This document shows, one piece after another, positions 34,361 to 61,640 of a stretch of 64,000 nucleotides of DNA (the stretch's first letter is position 1; each line of letters begins with the position of its first letter). The notes beneath the pieces are model-generated. The model saw nothing but the letters and a program-made list of their open reading frames with translations, was not told the origin of the DNA and searched no databases. The stretch spans positions 800,001 through 864,000 of the forward strand of contig OZ244717.1 of assembly GCA_965218975.1 (NCBI GenBank), read 5' to 3'. This stretch comes from Candidatus Oxydemutatoraceae bacterium (GTDB taxonomy: Bacteria; Pseudomonadota; Gammaproteobacteria; Poriferisulfidales; Oxydemutatoraceae). Both the position numbers and the translations under genes were made by a program.

Positions 34361-34463
34361 CGTGAAGAATTATGTCTAGAAATGTATATAATTCCCTTCT
34401 CGATCTAGCTAGCCTCTCAAGCCATCATCATGATGCGATGATGATAACACTGTAGCGAATCGG

Positions 34464-40776: not shown

Positions 40777-40871
40777 TGTTTTATTTTGTAAGCGCTGCCG
40801 AACAAGTTTAAGGATATTTTCGATATCGATATCCGATCATTCGCAACAAGTAATTTTCTTTTCCGAAGCAA

Positions 40872-40998
40872 CAGCGGTCGCTTGAATCAAGCGGTCGGTG
40901 TGCCGTTGCAGGCATTTCTTGTATTGTCTCCTATTCTTTGTATTTTCTTTGTGAAAATTTAACCTGTCCAACCTAATTCGGTGGCGATGTAATTAATT
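40872..40998 (+). repeat. Degenerate long direct repeat (TSD), left copy; right copy at 58784-58941
   Basis: CAGCGGTCGCTTGAATCA...AATTAATT on both flanks. The left copy lacks 31 bp and has several substitutions; it includes the last 40 nt of ppc (40959-40998). Confidence 0.85.
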
Positions 40999-41111
40999 CT
41001 TGACTTCGTAGGTTTTGGCTCGTAAGTGATTGCCCATGAGTGATTGTGCCAATTGCCCTCAGGATTCTTAGGGGCATTACATTGACAGTGTTGCTTGCGA
41101 CGCTCCCGTGC

Positions 41112-41275
41112 TCAGCTTCCTCCAGGACGTGACTTGCTCGGAAGCGGGAACGGAGCTTCGTCCCATTTCAGACTGACGCTACGGTAAATCCTGTTGGCGT
41201 CCGCGCTCGCGCGGCTCGGCATCGCATACCGCTCGAGCATGTCGGTACGTACCAAGATGCTCAACTGCAAGGCGT
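41112..41275 (-). pseudogene. 3' remnant of IS1634-family transposase
   Basis: LQLSILVRTDMLERYAMPSRASADANRIYRSVSLKWDEAPFPLPSKSRPGGS matches the C-terminus of the ORF ending at 36235. Confidence 0.88.
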
Positions 41276-41630
41276 TGTATAGTGCCGGATACATATGGGA
41301 CTCACGGCACGATTCAAAAAGGTGACCGATATGCAATATCAACACATCAGCCACCGCATCAAAGGTTTCTATATGAGCCAATTTAGCTTCAAGAATGGAG
41401 GCTCATGAGCGCTCTAATCTTCAACAGAAATATGCTGCCCTCATTTATGGGAGGGTGTAACCCCCGAACGCATTCAAGCTCGGTCGCAGTACTTTGTACC
41501 GCTAGCGCCGACGTTATCGCCGCATTGGACTCAGTGCATTGCATGACCGCACCAAAGCGCCGTGCAAGAGGCGTCGGCGGGTCTGGCCGCAACCGATTCA
41601 GTGTGAAACCGTTTTGCGCTTGTTGCCGTG

Positions 41631-41680
41631 TTGTCGGCGGATTGTGCCGGATTGTCGGCGGATTGTGCCGGATTGTCGGC
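41631..41680 (+). repeat. 21-bp tandem repeat (TTGTCGGCGGATTGTGCCGGA) x~2.4
   Basis: Read directly from the sequence. Confidence 0.8.
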
Positions 41681-41690
41681 AAAGTGCCTG

Positions 41691-41991
41691 TCACCCATGA
41701 CGCGACTGGGTTCTGTCAACAAGCCCCAGCCCCGACGTCCTTGTCGGGTCGTTCACTGCTGAAAACCAATCGGTTTTCCGGGCGCGTCTCACCCATGACG
41801 CGACTGAGTTCTGTCAATGAGCGCCAGCCCCGACATCCTTGTCGAGCCGTTCACCGCTGAAAACCAATTGGTTTTCCGGGCGCGTCTCACCCATGATGAG
41901 ACTTGGTTCTGTCAATGAGCGCCAGCCCCGACGTCCTTGTCGAGTCGTTCACCGCTGAAAACCAATTGGTTTTCAGCGGTGCATCTCACCC
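41691..41991 (+). repeat. 98-bp tandem repeat x3, each unit with a GAAAACCAAT(T/C)GGTTTTC palindrome
   Basis: Units start at 41691, 41789 and 41887; the right-hand element has only one unit. Confidence 0.88.
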
Positions 41992-42424
41992 TGCACCGCC
42001 CTCATGCCGGCAACGGACAGAATGCACCGGTCCGAATGTTGCTGCCGAATGCTTCCCCGGAAGCTCTTCAAGAATCCCATTTAGGGTGGTATCGTACATC
42101 TTGTTGACTGACATTAAACACATGTGCTAAAGTCTGTAAAATAATTCGGATTCATAAACATTACTCATACTCATGCGAAAGCAAGGCCGATCGCACACAA
42201 AATTAAATTTGCGAACGAAATATTGGGTTCAATACCGGTGGTTCAATACCGGTGCTGATTTTTCAACATGAATGTAAGCGTGAACATAATGCCGTATATA
42301 ATGACAGTCGGCGGTGCCGAGAGTCGTTTGCAGAATGAGCGACTGCGAATGTTTTACTGCGCAAACGTCAAGCGGGCCCTTGAGCGTATTTTCGGCTTGG
42401 CGGGCATTGCGGTTTATTGACAAG

Positions 42425-45400
42425 ATGTTGAAGTTTTGTTGCTCCCGAGCGTTGCCGCGCGCGCAAAGTTTTTCCTTCGGTTTGTGTCTGTTGGCCGTAT
42501 TGATTGCTTCGGTCTATGTTGAACCTGCCCACGCTCAGACTGCGCCTGCAATCATTGACATCAATATCGTATCGCAACCGGCATTGGGAGGCACCTACCT
42601 TTTCGACGAGACGATCGAAGTGGCGCTGACGTTCGACGAGACAGTGATTGTAACCGGCGTGCCGCTGATCGAGCTGAATATCGGCGGCCCGAGCACGGCG
42701 CGTTACGTTAGCGGCAGCGGCAGGGATACGCTGATATTCGCCTATACGGTTGAGGCGGATGTCTTCGACGGTGGCGCCGGTATCAGCGTTGTGGAAAACG
42801 CGTTGGCGCAAGACGGCGATATAGACATGGGGCACCGTGGCGGGGCCGGGGTTGCCATTGTTTCTGACGATGACACCCCGATTAACCTTTCCAATTCGGC
42901 GCGGGATTTTCCCGATGTCAGAGTTGATGGTAGAGACAACCCGACACTCACCGCCATTGATATCGTATCGCAACCGGCATTGGGAGGCACCTACCTTTTC
43001 GGCGAGACGATCGAAGTGGCGCTGACGTTCGACGAGACAGTGACTGTAACCGGCGTGCCGCTGATCGAGCTGAATATCGGCGGCCCGAGAACGGCGCGTT
43101 ACGTTCGCGGCAGCGGCAACGATACGCTGATATTCGCCTATACGGTTGAGGCGGATGTCTTCGACGATGGCGACGGTATCAGCGTTGTGGAAAACACGTT
43201 GGCGCAAGACGGCGATATAAACATGGGGCACCGCGGCGGGGCCGGGGTTGCCATTGTTTCTGACGATGACACCCCGATTGACCTTTCCAATTCGGCGCGG
43301 GATTTTCCCGATGTCAGAGTTGATGGTAGAGACAACCCGACACTCACCGCCATTGATATCGTATCGCAACCGGCATCGGGGGACACCTACCTTTTCGACG
43401 AGACGATCGAAGTGGCGCTGACGTTCGACGAGACAGTGACTGTAACCGGCGTGCCGCTGATCGAGCTGAATATCGGCGGCCCGAGAACGGCGCGTTACGT
43501 TCGCGGCAGCGGCAGCGATACGCTGATATTCGCCTATACGGTTGAGGCGGATGTCTTCGACGATGGCGACGGTATCAGCGTTGTGGAAAACACGTTGGCG
43601 CAAGACGGCGATATAAACATGGGGCACCGCGGCGGGGCCGGGGTTGCCATTGTTTCTGACGATGACACCCCGATTAACCTTTCCAATTCGGCGCGGGATT
43701 TTCCCGATGTCAGAGTTGATGGTAGAGACAACCCGACACTCACCGCCATTGATATCGTATCGCAACCGGCATTGGGAGGCACCTACCTTTTCGACGAGAC
43801 GATCGAAGTGGCGCTGACGTTCGACGAGACAGTGACTGTAACCGGCGTGCCGCTGATCGAGCTGAATATCGGCGGCCCGAGCACGGCGCGTTACGTTCGC
43901 GGCAGCGGCAGCGATACGCTGATATTCGCCTATACGGTTGAGGCGGATGTCTTCGACGATGGCGACGGTATCAGCGTTGTGGAAAACACGTTGGCGCAAG
44001 ACGGCGATATAAACATGGGGCACCGCGGCGGGGCCGGGGTTGCCATTGTTTCTGACGATGACACCCCGATTGACCTTTCCAATTCGGCGCAGGATTTTCC
44101 CGATGTCAGAGTTGATGGTAGCGACAACCCGACACTATTGTTGCTCGGTTACACTGGCTTCTATGCATTGGTGGGTGACTTTTTTACTGCGGGAAGGGAA
44201 CTCGCGATGCCGTTGATAACCGGCCCGAATGCGAACGGATATTTGCTGCAGAGTGTCGAACTGCCGGTTACCCGTCCTGACGTGGCCGGCTTCTCCGATC
44301 TGACCGTTGCTTTGCGGTCTGCTTCGGAGGACGGCCCGGGCGACGTGCTTGCGACTTTTACCGCTCCGGGTGATGATGTTTCCGGCCGGCCGACGTTCAC
44401 GCTGCCCTCGAGAGCGTTCCTGCAGCCGAACACCACTTATTTTATAAGTTATCTCAATAATAGCACCGCTACTTTCAACTTTTTCGCTGCTCAAATAGGT
44501 GACCTGGAAACCGGATCGTTCGAATGGATCAGCGCTATCTCACCAAATTGTGGAGCCAATGACCCCACTATTACCCTATGCTTGTATATACGCGATATGC
44601 CAAGTGCTCCGTGGGGGGGGGCTCCTTTAATAACGGGGGTTCCCGCGGAATACTTCGGAGCGCTTATCACCCGTACCGAAGTTCGAATCATCGATATCGT
44701 ATCGCAACCGGCATCGGGGGACACCTACCTTTTCGACGAGACGATTGAAGTGGCGCTGACGTTTGACGAGACAGTGACTGTAACCGGCGTGCCGCTGATC
44801 GAGCTGAATATCGGCGGCCCGAGCACGGCGCGTTACGTTAGCGGCAGCGGCAGCGATACGCTGATATTCGCCTATACGGTTGAGGCGGATGTCTTCGACG
44901 GTGGCGCCGGTATCAGCGTTGTGGAAAACGCGTTGGCGCAAGACGGCGATATAGACATGGGGCACCGCGGCGGGGCCGGGGTTGCCATTGTTTCTGACGA
45001 TGACACCCCGATTAACCTTTCCAATTCGGCGCGGAATTTCCCCGATGTCTTTGTGGACGGCAGGCTCCTTTGCGCCCGCACACTACAGGTTCGAGAAGCG
45101 ATTCTCAACGCGCTTCCCGGTGTAACCGATTGCGCGGCGATAACCGATGCCGATCTGAACTCTATCATTGAGCTGGATCTGGCCGAAATGGAAATTACCG
45201 CCCTAAAGGTGAGGGACTTTGCCGGACTCGCAGCTATGACGACGCTGAATCTAAGCTTGAATGAACTATCGAGTTTGCCTGCCGGTGTGTTCAATGGTCT
45301 CGTTGCTCTTACAGCGTTAAATTTGAATAATAACCAACTGTCGGACTTATCTGCCGGAATATTTAATTTTCTTCCGACTTCACTGACGGAGTTAACTTTG

Positions 45401-48400
45401 CACGAGAATGAATTGTCGCCTGCAGCGTTCCCCGATGGTGTATTTGAACGCTTCAGGTCGCTTAGATCAATTACTTTGTTCGGCAATCCCGGAAGCGATT
45501 CCTTCAGGCCATTGGCAAATGCCGGGCCTGAGCGGACAGTTAGAGTTGGCGAAACGGTTACGTTGGATGGTATTGCTACCGACGGCGGTCCGTTCGGGAC
45601 TAACCTTATCTTCGCATGGTTGCAAGCCGAAGAGGATGCTATACCGATTACATTGACCGGTGCGGATACCGCTACACCTACGTTCATTGTGCCGACGGAC
45701 GCGCCGGTCGGGAGCGTTTTCCGGTTTGATCTGAGAGTGACCGGTAGGGGCGAATATCGTGCAAGCGCCCAAGCTCCGGCGGAGCACCTTACCACCTACG
45801 ACCGAACGACAGTGACGGTTACGATACTCGCGCCGACGGGTCTGTCAGCGACAGCGGGTCATAAACGGGTAATACTCGAATGGATGACGGGCGACGGCGG
45901 CGGCAGCGCGATCACGCACTATCAATATCGGCAGAAAGCAGACGGTGAGGATTTCAGTGGATGGATGAATATTCCGGACGGCGATGATGCCGACAGCGAC
46001 GCCGGCAACGAGACGAGTTATACGGTTACCGGTCTGACGAACGGCACGAGCTACCTCTTCCAAGTGCGTGCGGTGAATGCTCTTGGCGCGCACAGCGAGG
46101 CCACGGCTGAGGTTGGTGCGAGACCGTTCTTGATTGAAATCGCTACTGGTGATTTGGCTATTACGGATTTTTATGCCGGCCCTTTTTCTGGCCTTCTGGA
46201 TATTACACCAAACGAGCAGGTGATTGCGCGTCCGGTGTTCGTCTTTGTCGGGTTTATCGGTGGCGTCCGGATGAGTGGTATTGAGCCAGATGAGATCGAA
46301 ATTGGGAACGGTGAGATTTTGCTGGTGAGAGTCGGTGACGAATGCGGCTTCGCCACCCCGGTCCCAGATAACGTTATCTGTATAGAGATACTCCCGACCG
46401 GGCCGAATGGTTCTCAGCTTACGATGAGTCTTCCTGCCGATGTTGCCGATCTAGGCAATGCCGCGGCGCCGGATTTCTATCGCCGGGAAATCGTTCGTTC
46501 GGACGGTATCATGGCAGAGGCCGTCTCAATGCCTGACGGTCCGATTCTCACATCGGAGCCGTTCGTAGTTACTTTTACTTTCAGCGGCGACGGAATATTA
46601 ATAGGAATAAGAGGGGCTGCGGCGGATAATGTTCCGTTCCCTTTGGAGGATTACTTGGAGCCTGAGGAAATTGAGGTAGTTTATAGTCCCCCTGCACCGT
46701 CCGGTGGTACTTTTATTCGTCTTGAGGTTTCCAATTCCAGTGCTAGTATGGGACATACTAATATTGATATTACCCTTCGGGCAAGGCAGCGCTATGAGGG
46801 TGTGCTGACTGTAATTTTACCTGCCGGCTCGGCTCGCAACATTTATGGGGATTCCTTACCTGAGACAAGTTTCTCAATCGAAGTCGACACTTTCCACCCG
46901 ATTGGCATTGTTGCGTCTTCAACTTTTGTGGTGGAAGGTACGACAGCAGTATTTACACTGATGCGAGACGGTCTAATAGATAGAGAGACGGAAGTAACGG
47001 TAGAAGTAACCGAGACGAACGAAATGGTGGCCGCTGCGGATGAAGGAAGGAAGAGTGTAGCATTCGCTGCGGGCTCAAGCACGGCAATATTTTCAGTTCC
47101 GACTGTTGAGGATATTTCGGATGAAGACGACAGTGTGGTTACGGTTCGAGTGAACGAGGTTGGTTCTGATTATGTAGTAGATATGACACAAAACATTGCT
47201 ACGGTGACGATACGAGACAACGATGCTGTGCCCGATGCACCGGCGGACTTAGCAGCCGCGGCGGGCGATACGTACGCGGTCCTAAGTTGGGATGCGCCTG
47301 CCGACCCCGGCGCTTCGCCGATTGAGCGTTACGAATATCGCGCGAGTAGCGACGCCGGAACGGTTTGGAATCCGGATTGGACCGACGCCGGCGATGCGAC
47401 GAGCGGAGTTAGGACTCAAGTCGTATCAAACTTAACTAACGATACGGAATACACATTTGAAGTGCGTGCGGTCAGCGCAATAGGCAACGGCACGACCGCG
47501 CAAGTCACGGCGACACCGAGCTCCGCGACGGCGGTATTCATCCTGATGTTTAACCCGACCGAATATACGGTCAATGAAAGCGAAGGGCGGGTTGAACTCA
47601 CGCTCAGACTGACCGGCGTCGGGCGTGCGCCGCAGGATAAAGTGACCGTTACTGTCTCGACACGCGACGGCAGCGCGGTCACTCCTCAGAAGTATGCGGC
47701 TATTAATAATGCGACGATTGTCTTTGAACCCGAAGAGGGCGTGACCGAGTTAACGCAAACGGTGACGGTTCAGATTGTCAATGACATCGTTTTGACCCCC
47801 GATGATCAGAGCTTTTCGGTGGTTATTACGGATGGAACGGCGGCGCATTCCGACGATACGGTCGTGATTGATCGGGGTCGCAGCGAAGCGACGGTGACTA
47901 TCTTCGATGACGGTGTAGGTCCTAGGTGGGATTATACGCAGGAATTGCCTAGTACCGTTAATGAAAGCACGGCCATGAATACGGTTTCAATCCGGTTGGG
48001 TCAGGGAGAAGGGCTTTTCGATGGGATTTATACAATTATGCTTGAGGTGGGGGGAACGGCGACGTTCGGGGAGGATTATATAATAGAGTTTGTCAGCGGG
48101 AGGAATGTAGGATCGAGAACGCTGCCGTTCACGAAAGGCGACCGTTTGATGCGACCGATTGAGTTCATGGATGGGCGTGATGATGAGAGTGGTATACATA
48201 TACGAGAGTTAAGGTTGCGCTTAGTGGTGACGGATGACACGGTGTATGAAGCGGATGAGACGATTGAGTTGCGCTTAACTACGAGCCACCCGGCCGCTAC
48301 GGTAAGCGACGATACGACGCAGACAATCACGCTCATCGACAACGATACGACGCCGGTATTGTCTCTATCGGTCGGTGCGATTGTTATCGACGAAGGGGCA

Positions 48401-51400: not shown

Positions 51401-54400
51401 GAGACGATTGAGTTACGTCTCAGCGTGACGGGCCACCCGGCCGCTACGGTAAGCGACGATACGACGCAGACAATCACGCTCATCGACAACGATACGACGC
51501 CGGTATTGTCTCTATCGTCTCTATCGGTCGGTGCAACCGAAATCAATGAAGGCGCATCGACCGATGTTGTAGTGGAAATCACGAACGAATCGGTATATGC
51601 CGAAGATCAAACAATTGCGTTAGAGTTTACCGGCGATGCGATGCCTGAGGACGACTATACGGTATCGGTCGACGGTTCGCCGTTGCCGTCGCCGTATGAG
51701 TTGACTTTACCGGCGGGGGCCTCTTCGGTAACCGCGACGATAACGGCAACAGACGACACGGAAATTGAAGTGGATGAAACGATTACGATTACCGCGCGGC
51801 ATGAAGGCGACACAATCGGCGAGGAAACAATTACGATCACCAGCAACGATGCCGACGTGGCGACGTTCACGGTCTCGTTTGATCCGGCCGAGTATACGGT
51901 CAATGAAAGTGACGGGCAGGTTGAACTCACACTCACACTGATCGGCGAAGGGCGCGGTCCGCAGGATGATGTAACCGTGACTTTCTCGGCACGTGACGGC
52001 AGCGCAGTCACCTTTGAAGATTATGTGGGTCAACAAGTTGAGAATGCTGAAGTCGTCTTTAGTTCCGCGAATGCTCAATTATCAGCAACGCTTAACATTC
52101 CTATTGTTGATGACATCGTTTTTGAACCCGATGACGAGGTCTTTTCGGTGGTTATTGACGATGTAACGGCGGCGCATTCCGACGATACGGCCATGATTGA
52201 TCAAGGCGAAGCGACGGTTACCATCGTTGACAACGATGATGAGCCGGAGTTAGTTTTGTCGGTGGACATGACTGCCATTGATGAAGGGGCATCGGTTGCT
52301 ATTAGAATAGAGATCACGAGCGAAGAGCTCACGACCGAATCGGTATTTGCTGAGGATCAAACGATTACGTTAGAGTTTGACGGCACGGCAACGGAGGACG
52401 ACTATACGGTATCGGTTGACGGCTCGCCGCATGAGTTGATTTTGAAGGCAGAAGAATTTGAGGCAAGTGCAACGATCATGGCGCTAATAGACGACATGAC
52501 GGCTGAGGGGAATGAGACGATTATGATTACCGCCCGGCATGAAGGCGAAATGATCGGCGAGGAAACGATCACGATCATTGATAACGTGGCGCCGGTATTC
52601 AGTGGAGAGGTGATATTTGAGATTGAAGAGGGCCTGACGATGGTCGGCACGATGACGGCTGAGGATGCGAACCCGCAAGACGAGGTGAGGTATTCGGTTA
52701 CCGGCGACGGTGCGGATGATGCCCTGTTTGATATCGACCCGTCTTCGGGCGAGTTGAGCTTCACAACCGCACCGGACTATGAGAATCCGATGGATGCGGA
52801 TACGGATAACGTTTATATGCTCATTGTGACGGCGGTCGGCGGCACGGACGTTCGGGCGTTGACGACGACGCAAGCGATTACGGTGACGGTGCTTGATGTG
52901 GTGACTACGATCACGATTACGGCAGACGAGGCAGAGGTCACGGAAGGCGAGTCGGCGGTATTTGTATTTGAGCGGACCGACGCGACGGATGCGCCGGTAT
53001 TGGCGGTGAACATTACGGTAGATGATCCCGACGGGGTGCTTGCGGCAGCGGCACCTGAAATGGTGACTTTTGACGCCGGTTCTGCGACAGCGGAGCTCAG
53101 TCTTGCCACCGACGACGATACGCTTGAAGAAGACGACAGCACGGTGACGGTTACCATCATAGACGATGTGGGCTATAGGATCGGTATTGAGAACAGTGCT
53201 TCGGTGCGTGTTGTCGACGACGACGTCAACGTGGCGCCGGCATTCACCAGTGCAGCAAGTTTTGAGGTCAACGAAGGGCAGACAGTAGTCGGCACGGTGA
53301 CGGCTGAGGATGCGAACATAGAGGACGAGGTGACGTATTCGATTACCGGCGGTGCGGATGATGCCTTGTTTGATATCGACTCGTCTTCGGGCGAACTGAG
53401 CTTCACAACCGCACCGGACTTTGAGAATCCGACGGATGCGGATATGAACAACAACTACATGCTCACGGTGACGGCGAGCGGCGGCACGGACGCTCGAGCG
53501 TTGACGACGACACAAGCGATTACGGTGACGGTGCTTGATGTGGCTACGACGATTACGATTACGGCGGACGAGGCAGAGGTCATAGAAGGCGAATCGGCGG
53601 TATTTGTATTTGAGCGGACCGACGCGACGGATGCGCCGGTATTGGCGGTAAACATTACGGTAGATGATCCCGACGGGGTGCTTGCGGCAACGGCACCTGA
53701 AATGGTGACTTTTGACGCCGGTTCTGCGACAGCGGAGCTCAGTCTTGCCACCGACGACGATACGCTTGAAGAAGACGACAGCGTAGTGACGGTTACCATC
53801 ATAGACGGTGCGGACTATAGGATCGGTATTGAGAACAGTGCTTCGGTGCGTGTTGTCGACGACGACGTCAACGTGGCGCCGGCATTCATCAGTGCAGCAA
53901 GTTTTGAGGTCAACGAAGGGGAGACGGTAGTCGACACGGTGACGGCTGCGGATGCGAATATAGAAGACGAGGTGATGTATTCGGTTACCGGCGGTGCGGA
54001 TGACGCCTTGTTTGATATCGACTCGTCTTCGGGCGAACTGAGCTTCACAACCGCACCGGACTATGAGAATCCGACGGATGTGGATACGGATAACGTTTAT
54101 ATGCTCATCGTGGCGGCAATCGGCGGCACGGACGTTCGGGCATTGACAACAACGCAAGCGATTACGGTGACGGTGCTTGATGTGGTGACTACGATTACGA
54201 TTACGGCAGACGAGGCAGAGATCACGGAAGGCGAGTCGGCGGTATTTGTATTTGAGCGGACCGACGCGACGGATGCGCCGGTATTGGCGGTGAACATTAC
54301 GGTAGACGATTCCGGCGGGGTGCTTGCGGCAGCGGCACCTGAAATGGTGACTTTTGACGCCGGTTCTGCGACAACGGAGCTCAGTCTTGCCACCGACGAC

Positions 54401-57400
54401 GATACGCTTGAAGAAGACGACAGCACGGTGACGGTTACCGTCATAGGCGGTATGGATTATGCGGTCGGTATTGAGAACAGTGCTTCGGTGCGTGTTGTCG
54501 ACGACGACGTCAACGTGGCACCGGCATTCATCAGTGCAGCAAGTTTTGAGGTCAACGAAGGGCAGACAGTAGTCGGCACAGTGACGGCTGAGGATGCGAA
54601 CATAGAGGACGAAGTGACGTATTTGATTACCGGTGACGGTGCAGATGATGCCTTGTTTGATATTGACTCGTCTTCGGGCGAACTGAGCTTCACAACCGCA
54701 CCGGACTATGAGAATCCGGTGGATGCGGATGAAGACAATAACTACATGCTCACGGTGACGGCGAGCGGCGGCACGGACGCTCGGGCGTTGACGACGACGC
54801 AAGCGATTACGGTGGCGGTGCTTGATGTGGCTACGACGATTACGATTACGGCGGCAGAGCCGATGGTAACGGAAGGCGAGCCGGCGGTGTTCGTGTTTGA
54901 GGGGACCGACGCGTCGGATTTGTTTGTGTTCTTTACGGTAGTTGAGTCCGGCGAGGTGCTTGTGGCTCCAACGCCTTCTGGTATTTCTTTTGGACCTGCT
55001 TCCGAGACAGTGATGCTCAGCGTTGCCACCATTGATGATACGCTTGAAGAAGACGACAGCACGGTGACGGTTACCATTGGTGTCGACGATATGGGTTTTT
55101 ATGAAGTCGGTATTGAGAACAGTGCTTCGGTGCGTGTTGTCGACAACGACGTCAACGTGGCGCCGGTATTCACCAGTGCAGCAAGTTTTGAGGTCAACGA
55201 AGGGGAGACGGTAGTCGGCACGGTGACGGCTGCGGATGCGAACATAGAAGACGAAGTGACGTATTCGATTACCAACGGTGCGGATGATGCCCTGTTTGAC
55301 ATTAACCCGTCTTCGGGCGAGTTGAGTTTCGCCATCGCACCGGACGTTGAGGCGGATAAGGTTTATATGCTCACGGTGACGGCGACCGGCGGCACGGACG
55401 CTCGGGCATTGACAACAACGCAAGAGATTGAGGTGACGGTGCTGGATGTGCCGACTACAATTACGATTACGGCGGACGAGGCAGAGGTCATAGAAGGCGA
55501 ACCGGCGATGCTTACACTCAGCCGGACAGACGCGACGGATGCGCCGGCATTGACAGTGAACATTACGGTAGATGCGACCGTCGGAGTGCTTGCGGATGCG
55601 GCGCCTGAAATGGTGACTTTTGACGCCGGTTCTGCGACAACGATGCTCAGCCTTGCCACCGTCATTGATGATACGTTCGGTGTCAGAACGGTGACGGTTA
55701 CCGTGAACGACGGTGTGGATTATGAGGTCGGTATTGAGAATAGCGCCGAGGTGCGGGTGGTTGACAAGGATGTCGTGCCCGGTGCGCCGGCGAATTTGGC
55801 AGCCGAGGCGGGCGACACACAGGCGGTCCTAAGTTGGGACGTACCTGCCGATTCCGGCACTGCGCCGATCGACCGCTACGAATATCGCGTGAGTGCCGAC
55901 GGCGGGAATATTTGGGATCCGGACTGGACGGCCGCCGGTGATGCGACGAGCGAAGTCGGAACTCAAATCGTATCGAACTTAGTCAACGGCACGGAATACA
56001 CATTTGAAGTGCGTGCGGTCAGTGCGGCGGGCAACAGCGCAGCCGCACGCATCACGGCAACACCGATAGTTGATGATACAGGGGCTAGCCTAACTTTACG
56101 CCGCATAGGCGACAAAAATGGCTATGATTTGATTGCCGATGTGCTCGCAAACGCCGAGGTGTCGGCAGACGGCAGTTTTGAAGTGGCGGTAGGTTCCGAC
56201 ATCGTATCGTGCACCGGTTGTGATAGCTTGGAAGCGTTTACAGCCTGCGAGGATACAAGCCAATTATGCCCGCTTAAATTTGATGATGAAAACCGGCGGC
56301 TATTTTTGCAGCAATTGGGCTTTACCGCAGTGATTTGGCGTGCGAAAGATGCAAACGGTAATATTTTCACCGGCGGTGCGGAAATTACGGATTATGACAT
56401 TGACGGCAGTTTGGAAGGTGTCGCATTTGCTCAACTATTTTATGTCGCACCGATTGTAGGTCTTGCGAATCGGAGTCAATATATCCCTCAAGACAGCAGT
56501 TCGACGATTACGATTGAGATTGATGTCCGGTCTGCCGAACTCGAACTCGAACTCGAACTTGGGCTTGAGGCAGAAGACTTTTCTGTAGAAGGAACATTGC
56601 CTCCTTGGACTTTCACTTCTATGCCTCTAGCTGTAATAGCGGATGGCGCTGCGTTAGAAGATGGCAATAGCGCGACAATCAGGCTGCTTGAGAACGACCT
56701 GAGTATGGATAGCGAAATGCCGGGTCTCCCGACGCTGTCTAATCCGGGAAGCGAAACTGATATTATGGTGGTCTATAACGATCCTTCCACACGTTTTTAT
56801 ACTGTAACTCGTAGTTTATTTATAGTTCGCGAACTTGACGTGCCGGCTTCATTCGGATTCAGGGTTCCGTTTAGAGTATTGGCTCTGGTCGATAATGAGG
56901 AAAGACGTTATGTGAAAGTGTCGGAGTTGGCTGATCAGGGCTTAACGTTCAAATCAACTCCGGCGGAGACCGGTGTACTCGTACGAGGCGAGTGGACGGT
57001 TAACATCATTGACGACTTGACGAATCCCGAGAGCGAGGCCTTTGAGATTCCGGCCTGTCCGGACGACACCACCGAGTGTTCGGTTATGGGTAATTTTACC
57101 CCGACGGAAGAAACTCCTCTGGTTATAAGAGGTGTCTTTGCCGGCGCCGGTTTTGATGCGAATAGTAGTGAGAGATTGACGACGACAATAACACAAACAA
57201 TATACGTCAATATAGTTGATGATCAATTATTGCCGGATAGGATAGACGATCTGGACGTTGACGGAGTTCGAGATGTCTATGCGGCTGGTGATGATAGCGC
57301 GATGAGCAATGTGAAGTTTAACAGAGATAATAGAGAGTTTCTTTATGCCGGAGATGAGACGGAGAACGATAGAGGGTTGACTTTAATTATTACCACAGGG

Positions 57401-58069
57401 GACGGTAAAGATGGCGAGGAGGACGGTTCAGCCATTCAAAAACCCGCTGTAGGTCTATTTTCAGTGGTAATAAGGTCGGTGACGGAAAATGCAATGCCGC
57501 ATTGGTCTGCGCTGATTGCCGAGAGCGAGGAGGATGCCGAAATAATAGGGATTGGCACACCACCGGCCTACGCAGGCAGCGGTGTCTATGATTTTGAAGT
57601 AATTTTTGATGTGGATAACTTTGACTTGCAAGCGCGGGTGGTTATTCCGCAACGTGAACCTATAGTCGAAGGCTCGGTCTATTACGAATATATCAATGGC
57701 GATTGGTGGGAGATTGATATGTCCGAAGCCGATCGTACCTATTCGGCGCCGAGGACTTCAGACAATCCTTGCCCAAGTCCCGATGCTATAGCGTATTGGA
57801 CGCCGGGTCTCAATGCGGGCCATCGCTGTGTGCTGCTGGAGGTCACAGATGGCGGGTTGAATGATGCCGATAGTGAAGCAAACGGCATTGTTGCAAATAC
57901 GGGTGCGATCGGCGGTAGCAGTGTCGTCGTCGATAGACGGCGCGGCGGCGGCGGTGCGGTCGGCTTGTGGTGGCTGCTTCTGTTCGTCGGTATCATTTTG
58001 GCGGCGATGGTCTTGAAACGCCGGAATGCAAGACCGACGCGGCGGATTTCACTTCAAAGTTTGCGCTAA
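42425..58069 (+). CDS. Giant repetitive surface protein/adhesin (LRR, PKD-like, FN3, Calx-beta, cadherin; GlyGly-CTERM anchor)
   Basis: Signal peptide from the ATG at 42425 (..VEPAHA-QT); five 132-aa repeats; LRRs (LNLSLNELSSLPAGVFNGL); FN3 (LTNGTSYLFQVRAVN); Calx-beta (VTIVDDD); cadherin (APDFENPTDADMNNNY); C-terminal GGGGAVGLWWLLL..KRR. The ORF is open from 42314. Confidence 0.92.
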   Translation: MLKFCCSRALPRAQSFSFGLCLLAVLIASVYVEPAHAQTAPAIIDINIVSQPALGGTYLFDETIEVALTFDETVIVTGVPLIELNIGGPSTARYVSGSGRDTLIFAYTVEADVFDGGAGISVVENALAQDGDIDMGHRGGAGVAIVSDDDTPINLSNSARDFPDVRVDGRDNPTLTAIDIVSQPALGGTYLFGETIEVALTFDETVTVTGVPLIELNIGGPRTARYVRGSGNDTLIFAYTVEADVFDDGDGISVVENTLAQDGDINMGHRGGAGVAIVSDDDTPIDLSNSARDFPDVRVDGRDNPTLTAIDIVSQPASGDTYLFDETIEVALTFDETVTVTGVPLIELNIGGPRTARYVRGSGSDTLIFAYTVEADVFDDGDGISVVENTLAQDGDINMGHRGGAGVAIVSDDDTPINLSNSARDFPDVRVDGRDNPTLTAIDIVSQPALGGTYLFDETIEVALTFDETVTVTGVPLIELNIGGPSTARYVRGSGSDTLIFAYTVEADVFDDGDGISVVENTLAQDGDINMGHRGGAGVAIVSDDDTPIDLSNSAQDFPDVRVDGSDNPTLLLLGYTGFYALVGDFFTAGRELAMPLITGPNANGYLLQSVELPVTRPDVAGFSDLTVALRSASEDGPGDVLATFTAPGDDVSGRPTFTLPSRAFLQPNTTYFISYLNNSTATFNFFAAQIGDLETGSFEWISAISPNCGANDPTITLCLYIRDMPSAPWGGAPLITGVPAEYFGALITRTEVRIIDIVSQPASGDTYLFDETIEVALTFDETVTVTGVPLIELNIGGPSTARYVSGSGSDTLIFAYTVEADVFDGGAGISVVENALAQDGDIDMGHRGGAGVAIVSDDDTPINLSNSARNFPDVFVDGRLLCARTLQVREAILNALPGVTDCAAITDADLNSIIELDLAEMEITALKVRDFAGLAAMTTLNLSLNELSSLPAGVFNGLVALTALNLNNNQLSDLSAGIFNFLPTSLTELTLHENELSPAAFPDGVFERFRSLRSITLFGNPGSDSFRPLANAGPERTVRVGETVTLDGIATDGGPFGTNLIFAWLQAEEDAIPITLTGADTATPTFIVPTDAPVGSVFRFDLRVTGRGEYRASAQAPAEHLTTYDRTTVTVTILAPTGLSATAGHKRVILEWMTGDGGGSAITHYQYRQKADGEDFSGWMNIPDGDDADSDAGNETSYTVTGLTNGTSYLFQVRAVNALGAHSEATAEVGARPFLIEIATGDLAITDFYAGPFSGLLDITPNEQVIARPVFVFVGFIGGVRMSGIEPDEIEIGNGEILLVRVGDECGFATPVPDNVICIEILPTGPNGSQLTMSLPADVADLGNAAAPDFYRREIVRSDGIMAEAVSMPDGPILTSEPFVVTFTFSGDGILIGIRGAAADNVPFPLEDYLEPEEIEVVYSPPAPSGGTFIRLEVSNSSASMGHTNIDITLRARQRYEGVLTVILPAGSARNIYGDSLPETSFSIEVDTFHPIGIVASSTFVVEGTTAVFTLMRDGLIDRETEVTVEVTETNEMVAAADEGRKSVAFAAGSSTAIFSVPTVEDISDEDDSVVTVRVNEVGSDYVVDMTQNIATVTIRDNDAVPDAPADLAAAAGDTYAVLSWDAPADPGASPIERYEYRASSDAGTVWNPDWTDAGDATSGVRTQVVSNLTNDTEYTFEVRAVSAIGNGTTAQVTATPSSATAVFILMFNPTEYTVNESEGRVELTLRLTGVGRAPQDKVTVTVSTRDGSAVTPQKYAAINNATIVFEPEEGVTELTQTVTVQIVNDIVLTPDDQSFSVVITDGTAAHSDDTVVIDRGRSEATVTIFDDGVGPRWDYTQELPSTVNESTAMNTVSIRLGQGEGLFDGIYTIMLEVGGTATFGEDYIIEFVSGRNVGSRTLPFTKGDRLMRPIEFMDGRDDESGIHIRELRLRLVVTDDTVYEADETIELRLTTSHPAATVSDDTTQTITLIDNDTTPVLSLSVGAIVIDEGASVDITVMTTATGSVYAEDQTITLEFTGDAMPEDDYTVSVDGSPLSSPYELTLPAGASSVTATITATEDTEIEADETITLTARHEGDTIGEETIMITDNDADVVTYTVSFDPTEYTVNESDGQVELTLTLIDEGRDPRGVVSVAVVTRGNSALGSLDYVTVPSNNPNLVEFNPGDVRLMSVIQILDDAILETEEIFEVLIFSVSAEHSDDEVVIGLGQDEATVTIVDDDAELNAAPVFTSSLSFEVNEGQTVVGMVTAEDANIEDEVMYSITGDADDVLFAIDPSSGELSFAAAPDFENPTDADMNNNYMLTVAAIGGTNVRALTTTQAITVTVLDVPTTITITADEAEVTEGESAVFVFERTDATDAPALTVNITVDATVGVLADAAPEMVTFDAGSATAELSLATDDDTLEEDDSVVTVTIIDDVGYRIGIENSASVRVVDDDVNVAPVFSSSESFEVNEGQTVVGTVTAEDANPQDEVMYSVTGGVDEALFTIDSSSGELSFTTAPDYENPMDADMNNNYMLTVTASGGTDARALTTTQAITVTVLDVVTTITITADEAEVIEGESAVFVFERTDATDAPVLAVNITVDDPDGVLAATAPEMVTFDAGSATAELSLATDDDTLEEDDSVVTVTIIDDVGYRIGIENSASVRVVDNDAVPGAPAELAAAAGDTHAVLSWDAPADPGTSPINHYEYRASSDAGTVWDPDWTSAGDATSEVRTQIVTDLTNDTEYTFEVRAVSAAGNGAAAQVTATPSSATAVFILTFDPSEYMVNESEGRVELTLRLTGVGRAPQDAVTVTFSARDGSAIAFEDYSGQQVENAEVVFSSANAQLSETLNIPIVDDIVFEPDDESFSVVIDNVSAAHSDDTVVIDRGRSEATVTIVDDGLAPIWNLQELPSIVNESTAMDTVSIILQNEGEALVEFYTIMLEVGGTATFGEDYIIEFVNAFILTGGSATIIPLTEGELLMRPIEIRDGPTISLGVLSFRLVVTDDTVYEADETIELRLSVTGHPAATVSDDTTQTITLIDNDTTPVLSLSSLSVGATEINEGASTDVVVEITNESVYAEDQTIALEFTGDAMPEDDYTVSVDGSPLPSPYELTLPAGASSVTATITATDDTEIEVDETITITARHEGDTIGEETITITSNDADVATFTVSFDPAEYTVNESDGQVELTLTLIGEGRGPQDDVTVTFSARDGSAVTFEDYVGQQVENAEVVFSSANAQLSATLNIPIVDDIVFEPDDEVFSVVIDDVTAAHSDDTAMIDQGEATVTIVDNDDEPELVLSVDMTAIDEGASVAIRIEITSEELTTESVFAEDQTITLEFDGTATEDDYTVSVDGSPHELILKAEEFEASATIMALIDDMTAEGNETIMITARHEGEMIGEETITIIDNVAPVFSGEVIFEIEEGLTMVGTMTAEDANPQDEVRYSVTGDGADDALFDIDPSSGELSFTTAPDYENPMDADTDNVYMLIVTAVGGTDVRALTTTQAITVTVLDVVTTITITADEAEVTEGESAVFVFERTDATDAPVLAVNITVDDPDGVLAAAAPEMVTFDAGSATAELSLATDDDTLEEDDSTVTVTIIDDVGYRIGIENSASVRVVDDDVNVAPAFTSAASFEVNEGQTVVGTVTAEDANIEDEVTYSITGGADDALFDIDSSSGELSFTTAPDFENPTDADMNNNYMLTVTASGGTDARALTTTQAITVTVLDVATTITITADEAEVIEGESAVFVFERTDATDAPVLAVNITVDDPDGVLAATAPEMVTFDAGSATAELSLATDDDTLEEDDSVVTVTIIDGADYRIGIENSASVRVVDDDVNVAPAFISAASFEVNEGETVVDTVTAADANIEDEVMYSVTGGADDALFDIDSSSGELSFTTAPDYENPTDVDTDNVYMLIVAAIGGTDVRALTTTQAITVTVLDVVTTITITADEAEITEGESAVFVFERTDATDAPVLAVNITVDDSGGVLAAAAPEMVTFDAGSATTELSLATDDDTLEEDDSTVTVTVIGGMDYAVGIENSASVRVVDDDVNVAPAFISAASFEVNEGQTVVGTVTAEDANIEDEVTYLITGDGADDALFDIDSSSGELSFTTAPDYENPVDADEDNNYMLTVTASGGTDARALTTTQAITVAVLDVATTITITAAEPMVTEGEPAVFVFEGTDASDLFVFFTVVESGEVLVAPTPSGISFGPASETVMLSVATIDDTLEEDDSTVTVTIGVDDMGFYEVGIENSASVRVVDNDVNVAPVFTSAASFEVNEGETVVGTVTAADANIEDEVTYSITNGADDALFDINPSSGELSFAIAPDVEADKVYMLTVTATGGTDARALTTTQEIEVTVLDVPTTITITADEAEVIEGEPAMLTLSRTDATDAPALTVNITVDATVGVLADAAPEMVTFDAGSATTMLSLATVIDDTFGVRTVTVTVNDGVDYEVGIENSAEVRVVDKDVVPGAPANLAAEAGDTQAVLSWDVPADSGTAPIDRYEYRVSADGGNIWDPDWTAAGDATSEVGTQIVSNLVNGTEYTFEVRAVSAAGNSAAARITATPIVDDTGASLTLRRIGDKNGYDLIADVLANAEVSADGSFEVAVGSDIVSCTGCDSLEAFTACEDTSQLCPLKFDDENRRLFLQQLGFTAVIWRAKDANGNIFTGGAEITDYDIDGSLEGVAFAQLFYVAPIVGLANRSQYIPQDSSSTITIEIDVRSAELELELELGLEAEDFSVEGTLPPWTFTSMPLAVIADGAALEDGNSATIRLLENDLSMDSEMPGLPTLSNPGSETDIMVVYNDPSTRFYTVTRSLFIVRELDVPASFGFRVPFRVLALVDNEERRYVKVSELADQGLTFKSTPAETGVLVRGEWTVNIIDDLTNPESEAFEIPACPDDTTECSVMGNFTPTEETPLVIRGVFAGAGFDANSSERLTTTITQTIYVNIVDDQLLPDRIDDLDVDGVRDVYAAGDDSAMSNVKFNRDNREFLYAGDETENDRGLTLIITTGDGKDGEEDGSAIQKPAVGLFSVVIRSVTENAMPHWSALIAESEEDAEIIGIGTPPAYAGSGVYDFEVIFDVDNFDLQARVVIPQREPIVEGSVYYEYINGDWWEIDMSEADRTYSAPRTSDNPCPSPDAIAYWTPGLNAGHRCVLLEVTDGGLNDADSEANGIVANTGAIGGSSVVVDRRRGGGGAVGLWWLLLFVGIILAAMVLKRRNARPTRRISLQSLR
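42564..44135 (+). repeat. 396-bp intragenic tandem repeat x4 (fifth copy at ~44694-45060)
   Basis: ATATCGTATCGCAACCGGCAT recurs at 42564, 42960, 43356, 43752 and 44694. Confidence 0.95.
49094..55760 (+). repeat. ~642-bp cadherin + Calx-beta-like module repeats (two blocks, about 7 copies)
   Basis: Recurrent NVAP..FEVNEG..APD(F/Y)ENP..TITITADEAEV..IENSASVRVVD with a period of 642-645 bp; interrupted at ~50370-52580 by FN3/Calx-beta units. Confidence 0.85.
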
Positions 58070-58145
58070 AGCTGATCTGCCCGGTATGTATTTGATGCCG
58101 GTTTAAGTCGGATACAATACTCCCGCAGCGAGTGTACGATGCCAC

Positions 58146-58687
58146 TGTACGATGGCACCCTAAATAGGATTCTTGAAGCGCTTCCAGAGAAGCGTTCGGC
58201 AGTAACATTCGGATCAGTGCTTTCTGTCCGTTGGCGGCATGAGGGCGGTGCAAAGGGTGAGACGCGCCCGGAAAACCGATCGGTTTTCAGCGACGAACGA
58301 CCCGACAAGGACGTCGGGACCGGGCCGGGGTTCATTCATAGAACCAAGTCTCGTCATGAACGACAAACACTGTGCCGACAACCCGTCGGCGCCTCTTGCG
58401 CGGCGCTTTGCCGCGATCATGCAATGCACTGAGTCCAATGCGGCGATAATGTCGGCACCGGCGGTACAAAGTACTGCGACCGACCTTGAATGCGTTAGGA
58501 GGTTACACCCTCCCAAAATGAGGACAGCATATTTCTGTCGAGGCTTAGAGCGCTCGTGAACCTCCATTTTGTTGGCTAAATTGGTTCATATAGAAACCTT
58601 TGATGCGGTGGCCAATGTGTTGATATTGCATATCGGTCACCTTTTTGAGTTAAGCTGTGAGTCCCCATGTGTATACGGCACTATACA
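58146..58687 (-). mobile_element. Non-coding TGT...ACA element (MITE-like), right copy, inverted
   Basis: TGTACGATGGCACC ... CGGCACTATACA; reverse complement aligns with 41276-42098. The inner end is partly duplicated at 58133-58145. Confidence 0.65.
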
Positions 58688-58782
58688 CTCTAGGACACTA
58701 CAACGGTTTTTTGGCGGAAGTTGGGTAACCCTATGAAAAATAAAGGATTTATTTCTCAATCTAGACAAAACCTACGAAGTCA

Positions 58783-58813
58783 ACAGCGGTCGCTTGAATC
58801 AGGCGACCGCTGT
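58783..58813. terminator. Strong hairpin downstream of ppc (possible terminator)
   Basis: ACAGCGGTCGCTTG-AAT-CAGGCGACCGCTGT; no clear U-tract. The stem is decayed in the duplicated copy at ~40871-40901. Confidence 0.35.
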
Positions 58814-58901
58814 GCCGTTGCAGGCATTTCTTGTATTAAATGAGAGCATTATTTTTTTCACCATAATTGTCTCCTATTCTTTGTATTTTCTTTGTGAAAA
58901 T

Positions 58902-61640
58902 TTAACCTGTCCAACCTAATCCGGTGGCGATGCAATTAATTGACAACAATAGCGCAACCAGTTTTTTTTGATAGACTTCTTCCTGATCGGGGCTTAAACT
59001 GCGGAACTCTTCTACCAATTTAACTTGTTCCATACCTGCCTGATCCACAACAGCCTTACGTCGTTGCAAGTAGCGCAAAAAGTATGGGAATCTTTCGCAT
59101 AGCGTTTTTTCCCCAGTGATTTTCAGCAGCATTTCAATACTCAATAAATACTCTTCTCGGATTAGTTCGAAGATTGTATCTCGGATGGTTCGATCCGTTA
59201 CCAGACCGGCGTATGCGCGGGCAATTTCAAGATTGACTTGCAATAGATTTCTTTCCACTTCATTGACGATTAATGCAAGCGGAGGATAGCACTGTGACAT
59301 TTTAATTAGCAAGGGTAATTCTTTTTGTTCAACCATATACCGAACCGCAGCGCCAAAACCAAACCAACCCGGCACCATCATACGATTTTGCGACCATGCA
59401 AACACCCATGGAATGGCGCGTAAGTCGTCTAGAGATTGACTGTTTGAACGGCGTGCGGGACGTGAACCGATTTTTAGCAGTTTCAACTCTTCGATGGGGC
59501 TTGCCTGCCGATAAAATTCAACCAACCCTTTCTGTGCCGCCAATTTTCGATATCTCGCGTATGACGTCTGTGCCATTGTTTCCATTATTGCGCGGTAGGA
59601 ATCGGGATATGTATCGTCGCTGTTAAACTCTGTCAGTAGGACTTGTTTGAGTGTGCCGACGCATAAGGCTTCCAGATGATATTCTGCGGTACCGCGGTTG
59701 GCATATTTCGCGGATACGACTTCGCCTTGTTCGGTCACGCGCATTTTTTTGGTGATCGTTAGAGGAGGTTGCGCCAAAACCGCTTCATCAATCGGAGCGC
59801 CGCCGCGACTACTAGACCCGCCGCGACCATGAAAAAATGACACATGGATTCCGAGTTCTTTTCCGCTATCGTGTAGCTTGGATTGCGCTTTATTCAACTC
59901 CCAGTTGGAGCAGAAAAATCCCCCGTCTTTATTAGAATCCGAATAGCCGATCATGATTTCTTGGAGGTGATTATTTGTAGCAATCGTGCGTTTTACGACG
60001 GCACATTCGAATACTTCCTTTAAAGTGCTCGGTCCGCGGCGCAAATCGCCGATTGTTTCTAACAGCGGAACAATCAGGATATTGCAATGTTTATTATGAT
60101 TCTTGCCGGAAAACAATCCGGCAAATTTTGCTAACAGGTACGCATTAAGCCAATCGGCGCTTGATTGCGTCATGCTTAAAATGAAATGATTAATTTCACG
60201 ATCGCGCAGGGTACGCTTTGTATTACCAATGGTATAAAAAGTATTTAAGGTCTCGGTTGTCGGTTCCGACAATGTCGGCCATTCAGGCAATCGTTCCCAT
60301 GGAGCATCGATTTGTTCAATCAACCATTGTCGGTACGCGTTCACGTCGGAAGGTAGTTGTTGTTTAGTTTTTTCCAGCAACTCATGCAACGTGTCGTTAA
60401 TGCGTTGTGAATGTTCTCTAAAATCAATCCCAAACGTATGAAATCCGAAACTCTTAGATTTTTTAATCAGTTGTAAAACATCATAGTAAGCGATTTCCTC
60501 AGCACCTATGTCGCACAAGCAACGATAAATCACTTCTAATTCATCGCAGAAATCATCAATGTGACTATACTGCGGAGTACCCCGACTGTGCCAGGTGTGT
60601 TCTAGTTTATCCAACATGCATTTTAAGTACTGCCGAAATAGCTCACCGGGATTACGCGCTTGGATTTCTTCTTGTTGCTTGGTTTCGGCAAATAGTTTGT
60701 TTAATTCCGACTTAAAATAATCCGGCACTTTGACGGCATGTTCGGCAATGCTGAAGTGGGAAAGCAGCGTTCGAAGCTCGCGGTACAGGTGTGTAAACGC
60801 GGCAGTGCGCGCGGTTTGTAAGGCTTTGGCTGAGATATCCGCGGTTACAAAAGGGTTCCCGTCACGGTCCCCTCCGATCCACGAACCGAATTGCAAGCGC
60901 GGAAGTTGAGTACCGGTGCGATGTTCAGGATAAAATTTGCCAAGCGCTGTATCTAGACGTAGATGTAGCGTGTTTATTGCATCAAATATCGAACTTTCGA
61001 AAAAATATAATCCCCAAGCAATTTCATCCTCGACTGATGGTTTTTCCCGACGAATTTCGCCGGTCATCCATAACAAATCTATTTCTCCGTACAGTTGCAC
61101 AATCAGTTTATTACGCTCGTTCGGAGTCCAACGTTCTAACTCCAACTGTTTTAGCAACAGGTAAATGCGGCGATGTATCTTAAGTACCGTGATACGCTTT
61201 GCTTCGGTCGGATGAGCGGTAATGACGGGTTCAATATATAGTTGTTCGAGATTTTTACGAATATTGGTATATGGAATGCCTAACTTTTTTGTTTCGCATA
61301 ACAGTTGCGCAAAAGTGTTGTCGTTATATTCGGTTCCCAAATAGGTTTCAATTTCACGTCGCCGTCGGATGGAAGTGTTTTCTTCAAGAATGTTGATTAA
61401 TTGAAACCAAATGCTCCGTGCCTGCATCGTGTACAGTAACTCCTGATCGTCGGCGGGGCGTTTTTCTCCTTCGAATAAAGGTCTGATTTCAGGGTGTCGT
61501 TTGTCGATAATACGTAGGAGTAAATCCTTAAATAATTGTTTTAGATTTTCAGCGTATCTGTAAGCATATTCCCGAATTTCCTCAATATCCGAACCTTGAG
61601 CAGGTGGCGCTGCCGGTTCGAAATGAGGAAACTTTTGCAT
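58902..61640 (-). CDS. ppc: Phosphoenolpyruvate carboxylase
   Basis: VITAHPTE, SWIGGDRDGNP, MIGYSDSNKDGG, FHGRGGSSSRGG, LRAIPWVFAW; C-terminus GLGWTG. Confidence 0.96.
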   Translation of the reverse strand: MQKFPHFEPAAPPAQGSDIEEIREYAYRYAENLKQLFKDLLLRIIDKRHPEIRPLFEGEKRPADDQELLYTMQARSIWFQLINILEENTSIRRRREIETYLGTEYNDNTFAQLLCETKKLGIPYTNIRKNLEQLYIEPVITAHPTEAKRITVLKIHRRIYLLLKQLELERWTPNERNKLIVQLYGEIDLLWMTGEIRREKPSVEDEIAWGLYFFESSIFDAINTLHLRLDTALGKFYPEHRTGTQLPRLQFGSWIGGDRDGNPFVTADISAKALQTARTAAFTHLYRELRTLLSHFSIAEHAVKVPDYFKSELNKLFAETKQQEEIQARNPGELFRQYLKCMLDKLEHTWHSRGTPQYSHIDDFCDELEVIYRCLCDIGAEEIAYYDVLQLIKKSKSFGFHTFGIDFREHSQRINDTLHELLEKTKQQLPSDVNAYRQWLIEQIDAPWERLPEWPTLSEPTTETLNTFYTIGNTKRTLRDREINHFILSMTQSSADWLNAYLLAKFAGLFSGKNHNKHCNILIVPLLETIGDLRRGPSTLKEVFECAVVKRTIATNNHLQEIMIGYSDSNKDGGFFCSNWELNKAQSKLHDSGKELGIHVSFFHGRGGSSSRGGAPIDEAVLAQPPLTITKKMRVTEQGEVVSAKYANRGTAEYHLEALCVGTLKQVLLTEFNSDDTYPDSYRAIMETMAQTSYARYRKLAAQKGLVEFYRQASPIEELKLLKIGSRPARRSNSQSLDDLRAIPWVFAWSQNRMMVPGWFGFGAAVRYMVEQKELPLLIKMSQCYPPLALIVNEVERNLLQVNLEIARAYAGLVTDRTIRDTIFELIREEYLLSIEMLLKITGEKTLCERFPYFLRYLQRRKAVVDQAGMEQVKLVEEFRSLSPDQEEVYQKKLVALLLSINCIATGLGWTG

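Follow-up and report, generated by a model that had tools for sequence, protein, structure and literature searches.

A giant gene predicted to encode a secreted or surface-anchored repeat protein is located, in the genome of a Candidatus Oxydemutatoraceae bacterium, within the remains of a hollow insertion sequence (IS) of the IS1634 family, which in turn occupies the 3' end of ppc, the gene for phosphoenolpyruvate carboxylase. The window analyzed here is a stretch of 64,000 nucleotides, corresponding to bases 800001-864000 of one 2.081-Mb contig (OZ244717.1); coordinates refer to the window, unless marked as genome. The nested block extends over 40872-58941, for a total of 17.8 kb, and is composed, from outside in, of a long direct repeat, the two ends of an IS1634-family element, two inverted elements of the IS481 family and a giant open reading frame (ORF). 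Inside the IS1634 ends, 17.4 kb of DNA are foreign to that element, about 1.56 kb of its interior, and with them almost the entire transposase gene, are gone, and IS481-family elements are found in their place. The interpretation favored here, to which a probability of roughly 0.55 is assigned, is that an IS481-bounded segment later invaded a resident IS1634 copy, part of which was also deleted.

Very large 'eukaryote-like' repeat proteins are often carried by animal-associated bacteria, and the spread of the corresponding genes is poorly documented. The locus is a rare readable record of how such a gene, apparently coding for a surface protein, reached a site. Because it is seated in a hollow IS1634 element and bracketed by two dead IS481 copies, the gene can be said to have been brought there by mobile DNA; a general or currently active transfer route is not implied by the locus. 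The nested layout, with its degenerate direct repeats, its two inverted TGT...ACA elements and its single giant gene, had already been outlined in a first-pass annotation of the sequence, whose boundaries proved right within a few bases.

Target duplication and IS1634-family ends

The direct repeat abuts both IS1634 termini and flanks the entire block. Its left copy (40872-40998) contains the 3' end of ppc and the downstream hairpin; the right copy (58784-58941) holds the palindromic hairpin and the last 13 codons (58905-58941) of ppc itself, which extends on the minus strand over 58902-61640 and whose 3' end was the insertion target. The two copies differ by 6 mismatches over 127 aligned bases and by a 31-bp gap, corresponding to extra bases in the right copy, and are the only ones detected by BLAST in the whole genome (E values of 1e-31 and 5e-16). 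The right copy contains a perfect 31-nt palindrome (58783-58813). Since four of the six mismatches of the left copy cluster within one arm of this palindrome, the left copy fits a decaying duplicate.

The IS ends were compared to a full copy of 1912 bp. The right-end fragment (40999-41275, minus strand) measures 277 bp and is 84% identical, as reverse complement, to positions 1655-1912, which include the terminal inverted repeat as well as ~53 codons from the end of the transposase gene. The left-end fragment (58688-58783, minus strand) measures 96 bp, matches positions ~1-97 at 78-81% identity, again as reverse complement, and keeps its terminal inverted repeat; lengths of ~280 bp and ~95 bp had been anticipated for the two fragments. 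The terminal 17-mers of both fragments (genome 841000, plus strand, and 858783, minus strand) do not differ from those of active copies, and the terminal inverted repeats are present at both ends, facing outward. No other part of the element is left, so that the shell lacks a DDE transposase, and the divergence of its ends from all other copies in the genome amounts to 9-22%.

Fifteen full IS1634-family copies are present in the genome. The 567-aa protein encoded by a full copy (genome 417712-419623) matches NF033559 (IS1634 family) with a score of 338 bits, against a cut-off of 100, and also Pfam DDE_Tnp_1. Frames of 574-575 aa are open in 10 of the 15 copies, and nine copies are 97.6-99.8% identical to the reference one, itself a tenth. 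Perfect direct repeats of 23, 29, 32, 67, 77, 116, 323, 433, 543 and 618 bp flank ten of the full copies, and nine of these repeats abut both IS ends. The exception is the 543-bp repeat (34254-34796 and 36369-36911) of the copy located in the window at 34797-36332 (plus strand, with a ~376-bp internal deletion), which begins 36 bp past the right end; it is the copy whose termini had served for comparison in the first-pass annotation. For the other five full copies no flanking repeat was detectable by search.

Because 10 of the 15 full copies bear perfect flanking repeats of 23-618 bp, the direct repeat around the block is identified as the target duplication produced when an IS1634 copy inserted, once, at the 3' end of ppc; its length is typical of the family in this genome. 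One flanking duplication is common to both IS ends, which are therefore the product of one insertion and not of two independent ones, in agreement with the first-pass annotation. Dating by divergence (4.6% for the duplication, 12% for the outer IS end, 2-4% for the part inside it) was attempted and was not decisive, since one copy of the duplication is under selection and only 130 bp could be compared.

In its sections on this family, a 2008 review (De Palmenaer et al. 2008, PMC2266710) describes duplications of 5-6 bp as usual, lists IS1634 and IS1549, with variable repeats of 8-514 bp, as the only members then known to make long variable ones, and states that a mechanism for the latter had not been proposed. 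The locus adds a case of these unexplained long duplications, from a genome that has uncultured gammaproteobacteria of Ca. Oxydemutatoraceae as its nearest relatives.

The inner IS481-family elements

The two inner elements carry TGT...ACA termini and are inverted relative to each other, with arms 87-91% complementary. Element A (41276-42098, plus strand) runs from a head, TGTATAG, to a tail, TCGTACA, and contains three 98-bp tandem units at 41686-41979. Element B (58146-58687, minus strand) contains one such unit and a 42-aa coding remnant (58368-58493, minus strand). The heads of both face outward and end exactly at TGTATAG, beside IS1634 positions ~1655 for A and ~97 for B. Such exact joints are what the transposition of an IS481-type end into IS1634 DNA would leave. 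The nesting of IS481-derived within IS1634 DNA is recurrent, as IS1634 fragments ending against IS481-derived pieces are found at four more loci (genome 278968, 476817, 1363641 and 1384040).

A and B are members of a genome-wide family, made up of a ~300-bp head that starts with TGTATAG, a tail of ~108 bp that finishes with TCGTACA and, in between, an array of 98-bp units that varies among copies. Searches of the genome revealed ~300 matches to the 98-bp unit, 39 heads and 83 tails, combined into 29 head-to-tail pairs of 0.54-3.4 kb. Among the family copies, 25 alignments begin at the head position and 74 finish at the tail position, and the inverted-repeat similarity past TGTA is weak. Compared with the other decayed IS481 elements of the genome, A and B show the same head, 98-bp units and tail; here they are inverted around a gene and located inside an IS1634 relic.

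The relation to IS481 was examined by profile search. NF033577 (IS481) gave 118 fragment matches genome-wide, which map inside elements of this family; the best reaches 90 bits against a cut-off of 224, and no IS481 transposase above the cut-off was found in the genome. The 42-aa remnant of element B corresponds to positions 23-59 of the IS481 profile (E 7e-4, 19 bits) and to Pfam HTH_28 (E 1e-4). Pfam searches with the small ORFs within the inner elements gave no matches, and an Rfam search of 40700-42400 gave only two chance-level microRNA matches. IS481-like transposons of parabasalids are described, in a report that ties these features to the prokaryotic IS481 family, as having TG..CA and TGT...ACA termini and duplications of ~4, 15 or 25 bp (PMC10045372). 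In the present genome an exact 5-bp flanking repeat was found for 3 of the 28 complete family copies, with ~0.03 expected by chance; neither A nor B, taken singly or as a pair, is flanked by a target duplication.

Directly against the tail of element B lies a 13-bp stub (58133-58145, minus strand), read from the sequence as part of another tail terminus of the IS481 type. Similarly, near genome 1862871 and 1255776 the end of a tail, followed by 6 bp, lies in front of a head. These stubs look like leftovers of abutted or tandem copies.

An IS1634 left-end fragment at genome 2073082-2073173 is also cut at about position 95, in this case by a different repeat, with terminus ...ATACA, which suggests that this spot of IS1634 may be a preferred target. 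The TGTAT-ended element found there at the same IS1634 position, together with the CTCTAG beside the head of B, had raised the idea of a target preference for CTAG, which was dropped as the flanks of the 28 complete copies show no CTAG.

The giant gene

The only ORF between A and B is the giant one (42314-58069, plus strand), which is ~15.8 kb long, comprises 5251 codons and has its probable start at Met 42425. This methionine is followed by a stretch that, judged by eye, resembles a signal peptide. Pfam searches identified LRR_8, fn3, Calx-beta and cadherin domains, with no RTX repeats (HemolysinCabind) among the matches, and NCBIfam searches identified choice-of-anchor R and U domains; at the C-terminus a hydrophobic stretch and then a basic tail come after the choice-of-anchor U domain. 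By its domains, the product is classified as a large secreted or surface-anchored repeat protein, for which the label 'adhesin' would be a domain-based proposal. The upstream region (42099-42424, plus strand), also present in front of two paralogs (genome 880 kb and 1839 kb), contains promoter-like sites at 42104-42142 and 42263-42290, recognized as consensus matches only.

The giant genes of this genome have long stretches in common, with identities of 80-97%. Other giant frames, of 19552 aa (genome 928220-986878), 9164 aa (1811645-1839139), 7845 aa (714850-738387) and 5903 aa (1364455-1382166), share 640-bp repeat units with the gene in the window at 80-90% identity. The 3' flanks of two other giant genes (genome 738554-739002 and 1363641-1364288) are alike in structure, each consisting of a short terminus-like stretch, 44 bp and an IS1634 right-end fragment with its terminus toward the gene.

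Decayed IS481 tails are located directly upstream of giant genes much more frequently than chance would predict, e.g. at genome 714804, 842098, 880374, 1057760, 1839328 and 1862332, and the heads upstream of several giant genes fall within one subclade. Thirty-eight tails are followed within 350 bp by a same-direction ORF of at least 150 aa; for 6 of these 38 the ORF measures at least 1200 aa, whereas only 20 of 1651 ORFs genome-wide reach this size (hypergeometric P = 3e-6); when three paralogous upstream regions are counted once, the cases are 4 and P = 5e-4. A promoter, regulatory or recombination-anchor role of these tails is possible.

The first-pass annotation had proposed that this architecture could be a route for the movement of giant repeat-protein genes; as a general route it is not supported. 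A scan of the genome for IS1634 termini gave 48 matches and, outside the 15 full copies, the shell in the window is the sole inward-facing pair of termini around cargo. Of 20 ORFs of at least 1200 aa counted in the genome, only the gene in the window has another, inverted element on its downstream side as well as a shell of IS1634 ends, and none of the 19 others has the architecture.

The ppc site in related genomes

Matches to ppc were sought in 30 relatives and in species-representative genomes. The closest are uncultured gammaproteobacteria, from Ca. Oxydemutatoraceae and 'uncultured Chromatiales' assemblies, and all are distant, the best ppc match being 55-57% identical. The neighborhood is conserved in three related genomes, where the order is a 295-aa gene, a 2-hydroxyacid dehydrogenase, ppc, a convergent AMP-binding enzyme, a phosphotransferase and a nucleotidyl transferase. 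In all three no giant gene lies between ppc and the AMP-binding gene, the corresponding gaps measuring 113 bp, 1.2 kb and 3.4 kb. The arrival of the giant gene at the ppc site as cargo, as proposed for a host-interaction gene in the first-pass annotation, is supported by its absence in all three genomes with a conserved neighborhood, and no relative was found to carry the gene at this site in the absence of the IS ends.

An empty site exact to the base was sought among the relatives, by a metagenome scan, which returned one distant 2.5-kb contig, and among the contigs of sequencing runs, and was not found. A literature search retrieved no papers on 'Oxydemutatoraceae'. A second, distant ppc homologue, 32% identical to the one in the window, is located at genome 1016920-1019520; most of the relatives searched match the window ppc only at 31-36% identity, the level of this second homologue.

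A paralogous joint at genome 879 kb

A joint between an IS1634 end and an element of the A type, identical to that on the left side of the block, is present 38 kb away, in a paralogous locus at genome 879279-888223. The similarity to the window starts at the IS terminus and amounts to 95.6% over 1953 bp, with an uneven distribution of mismatches: there are 24 in the 201 bp nearest to the IS terminus and 20 in the 600 bp that follow (Fisher p = 1.8e-5). Over the outer 192 bp, identity between paralog and window is 88.0%; as other old copies range between 83 and 90.6%, the paralog is no closer to the window than unrelated ones. Over the inner 82 bp, in contrast, window and paralog are mutually closest, at 96.3%, and the identity in the sequence which follows is 96.7-98%. 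At the paralog locus there is neither a right IS end nor a flanking duplication.

The paralogous gene (2547 aa), studied within genome 878500-889500, is a mosaic, in which parts of at least two other giant genes are combined with a unique 3' end. The 2.5 kb at its 5' side and a 2.8-kb block are 96-99% identical to the gene in the window, a 2.4-kb block is 93-97% identical to the gene for the 7845-aa frame (719 kb), and the final 1.5 kb have no counterpart elsewhere in the genome. Since the IS end of the paralog is a hybrid, 12% divergent in its outer part and 2-4% inside, the joint common to the two loci is best read as the result of recombination, with one breakpoint inside the IS end, rather than as a second copy of the shell. 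On this reading, dispersed dead IS copies serve as recombination anchors, by which the 5' parts of giant genes are shuffled.

Route of arrival

According to the favored interpretation, an IS1634-family element inserted once into the 3' end of ppc, making a long duplication, of 127 bp as it stands now or of 158 bp if 31 bp were later lost from the left copy. IS481-family elements would then have transposed into this resident copy, as exact TGT...ACA termini join IS1634-internal sequence. The giant gene would have come along between two inverted IS481 copies whose heads point outward, in a unit resembling a composite transposon. The movement of this unit, through transposition or through recombination among dispersed IS481 copies, and the order of the events are both inferred. 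At least one further event, such as a deletion between two directly oriented IS481 copies, would have removed IS1634 positions ~98-1654, and both transposon layers subsequently decayed. As no IS481 transposase reaches the profile cut-off and the IS1634 ends are 9-22% diverged, the block is therefore regarded as the fossil of a gene arrival and not as an active vehicle.

The idea, put forward in the first-pass annotation, of a composite transposon that landed in an IS1634 copy and gutted it fits the data in so far as precise IS481 termini are set on IS1634-internal DNA. Its simplest form, a single insertion of an IS481-bounded composite, is excluded, because the outer joints fall at IS1634 positions ~97 and ~1655 and have no duplication in common. 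Whatever the model, no fewer than three events are required. Several observations weigh against the favored interpretation. The IS481-bounded unit is not surrounded by a duplication and its outer joints are ~1.56 kb apart in IS coordinates, so that extra events must be assumed. In a tree of 30 heads A and B fall within one 9-member subclade without being sisters, and the possibility that they are sister copies is not supported by this tree. The genome contains neither a second copy of the whole unit nor a donor with two inverted elements around a giant gene. The IS481 joints are not dated relative to the IS1634 insertion at ppc, and, as the relatives are too distant (ppc 55-57% identical), the site without the gene is defined by synteny and not to the base.

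Alternatively, the IS1634 element could have been hollowed and loaded elsewhere, and the whole 17.8-kb block transposed in trans to ppc, making the 127-bp duplication there. The preserved terminal 17-mers, the duplication flanking the whole block and the availability of a transposase (open frames in 10 of 15 copies, and nine copies at 97.6-99.8% identity to the reference one) are all consistent with such a move, as is the paralog at genome 879279, whose IS-end/element-A joint is identical and whose similarity starts from the IS terminus. The hybrid nature of the IS end in the paralog indicates that this joint reflects recombination and not a copied shell, which counts against the mobilization in trans by IS1634 ends considered in the first-pass annotation; moreover, the paralog has no right IS end or flanking duplication, and the shell in the window remains the sole inward-facing pair outside the full copies. 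A later move of a loaded shell also needs all the events of the favored interpretation plus one more, which makes the favored one shorter by a step than any model of this kind. On balance the transposition of a loaded shell appears unlikely. It is rather improbable that, instead, the resident IS1634 copy at ppc exchanged its interior by recombination, through the homology of its ends (277 and 96 bp), with a locus in which a giant gene lay among IS1634 fragments and IS481 elements, with no transposition into the site. A recombination with a breakpoint in an IS1634 end did occur between the window locus and genome 879 kb, the gene of the paralog is a mosaic, and giant genes share long stretches at 80-97% identity; but the genome has no donor in which element B adjoins an IS1634 left end, the right-hand homology would amount to only 96 bp, and the direction of the exchange between 841 kb and 879 kb cannot be read from the data.

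A chimeric join in the assembly, caused by the IS copies, the IS481-derived elements and the paralogs of the giant gene, was also considered. Repeats abound in the region, contigs from short reads are interrupted there, and its left 2 kb have a 96%-identical paralog; the genome was, on the other hand, assembled as a single 2.081-Mb contig, and a misjoin would not yield a symmetric structure, with a unique outer duplication, correctly oriented IS ends and inverted inner elements. Seven sequencing runs from three studies, none recorded as RNA, were available, and the contigs of four runs were compared over 57700-59400. In run X3, which possibly corresponds to the source sample, a 270-bp contig spans 58626-58895 with no differences, linking element B, the IS end and the direct repeat at the right junction. 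Given the symmetry of the structure and this bridging contig, an artefact is very improbable. None of the contigs joins across an empty site, with the limit that contigs lose rare variants and cannot reveal rare alleles. A 31-bp skip (58834>58866) observed in run contigs was rejected as a real variant, being due to cross-mapping of the left copy of the repeat.

It is doubtful that the block is a still mobilizable 17.8-kb cassette, with two perfect IS1634 termini usable by the products of about ten intact transposase genes of the same genome. If it were, a single step would suffice to move a whole giant gene for a putative surface protein, and a long duplication of the target would result. Such a cassette would probably be far larger than known mobile insertion cassettes.

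Relation to known systems

The block is a variant of known things, in which nested ISs, a unit resembling a composite transposon and a cassette-like shell are combined. In composite transposons of the Tn10 and Tn5 type, two inverted IS copies bound the cargo. Here too, two inverted copies of one IS family bracket a gene, with the same type of end outward; unlike in Tn10 and Tn5, the unit has no flanking duplication, its outer joints are separated by 1.56 kb in the target, repeat arrays take the place of the transposase gene in the dead IS copies, and no second copy of the unit exists.

MIC231 of Bacillus cereus is reportedly a mobile insertion cassette, said to have been described by Chen et al. 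in 1999. As in such cassettes, according to the definitions given in PMC6199540 and PMC2266710, IS terminal repeats surround a passenger without a transposase, a duplication flanks the whole and cognate transposase genes are found elsewhere in the genome. The block differs in that it gives no sign of movement in the loaded state, being a single instance with a paralog explained by recombination, and in that its 17.4-kb passenger is itself bounded by another IS family.

As for IS1634 and IS1549, the full copies match NF033559, their repeats of 23-618 bp resemble the 8-514 bp reported in PMC2266710, and the block itself has such a long repeat. In contrast to both, it lacks a transposase, retains ends of only 277 and 96 bp around 17.4 kb of foreign DNA, and occurs in a host whose nearest relatives are Ca. 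Oxydemutatoraceae and not a mycoplasma or mycobacterium.

The giant protein is also distinct from one class of giant adhesins. Type I-secreted RTX adhesins, such as LapA and Bap-like proteins, have C-terminal RTX repeats and a secretion signal, and no N-terminal signal peptide. The giant protein has, unlike these, no RTX match, an N-terminus resembling a signal peptide and a C-terminus of the anchor type.

Other loci with IS1634 termini

Two 637-bp units, 97.8% identical, are located at genome 140449-141084 and 149832-150466, in direct orientation and 9.4 kb apart. They flank a 1587-aa ORF, and each starts with a perfect IS1634 terminus, the remainder being unrelated to the IS.

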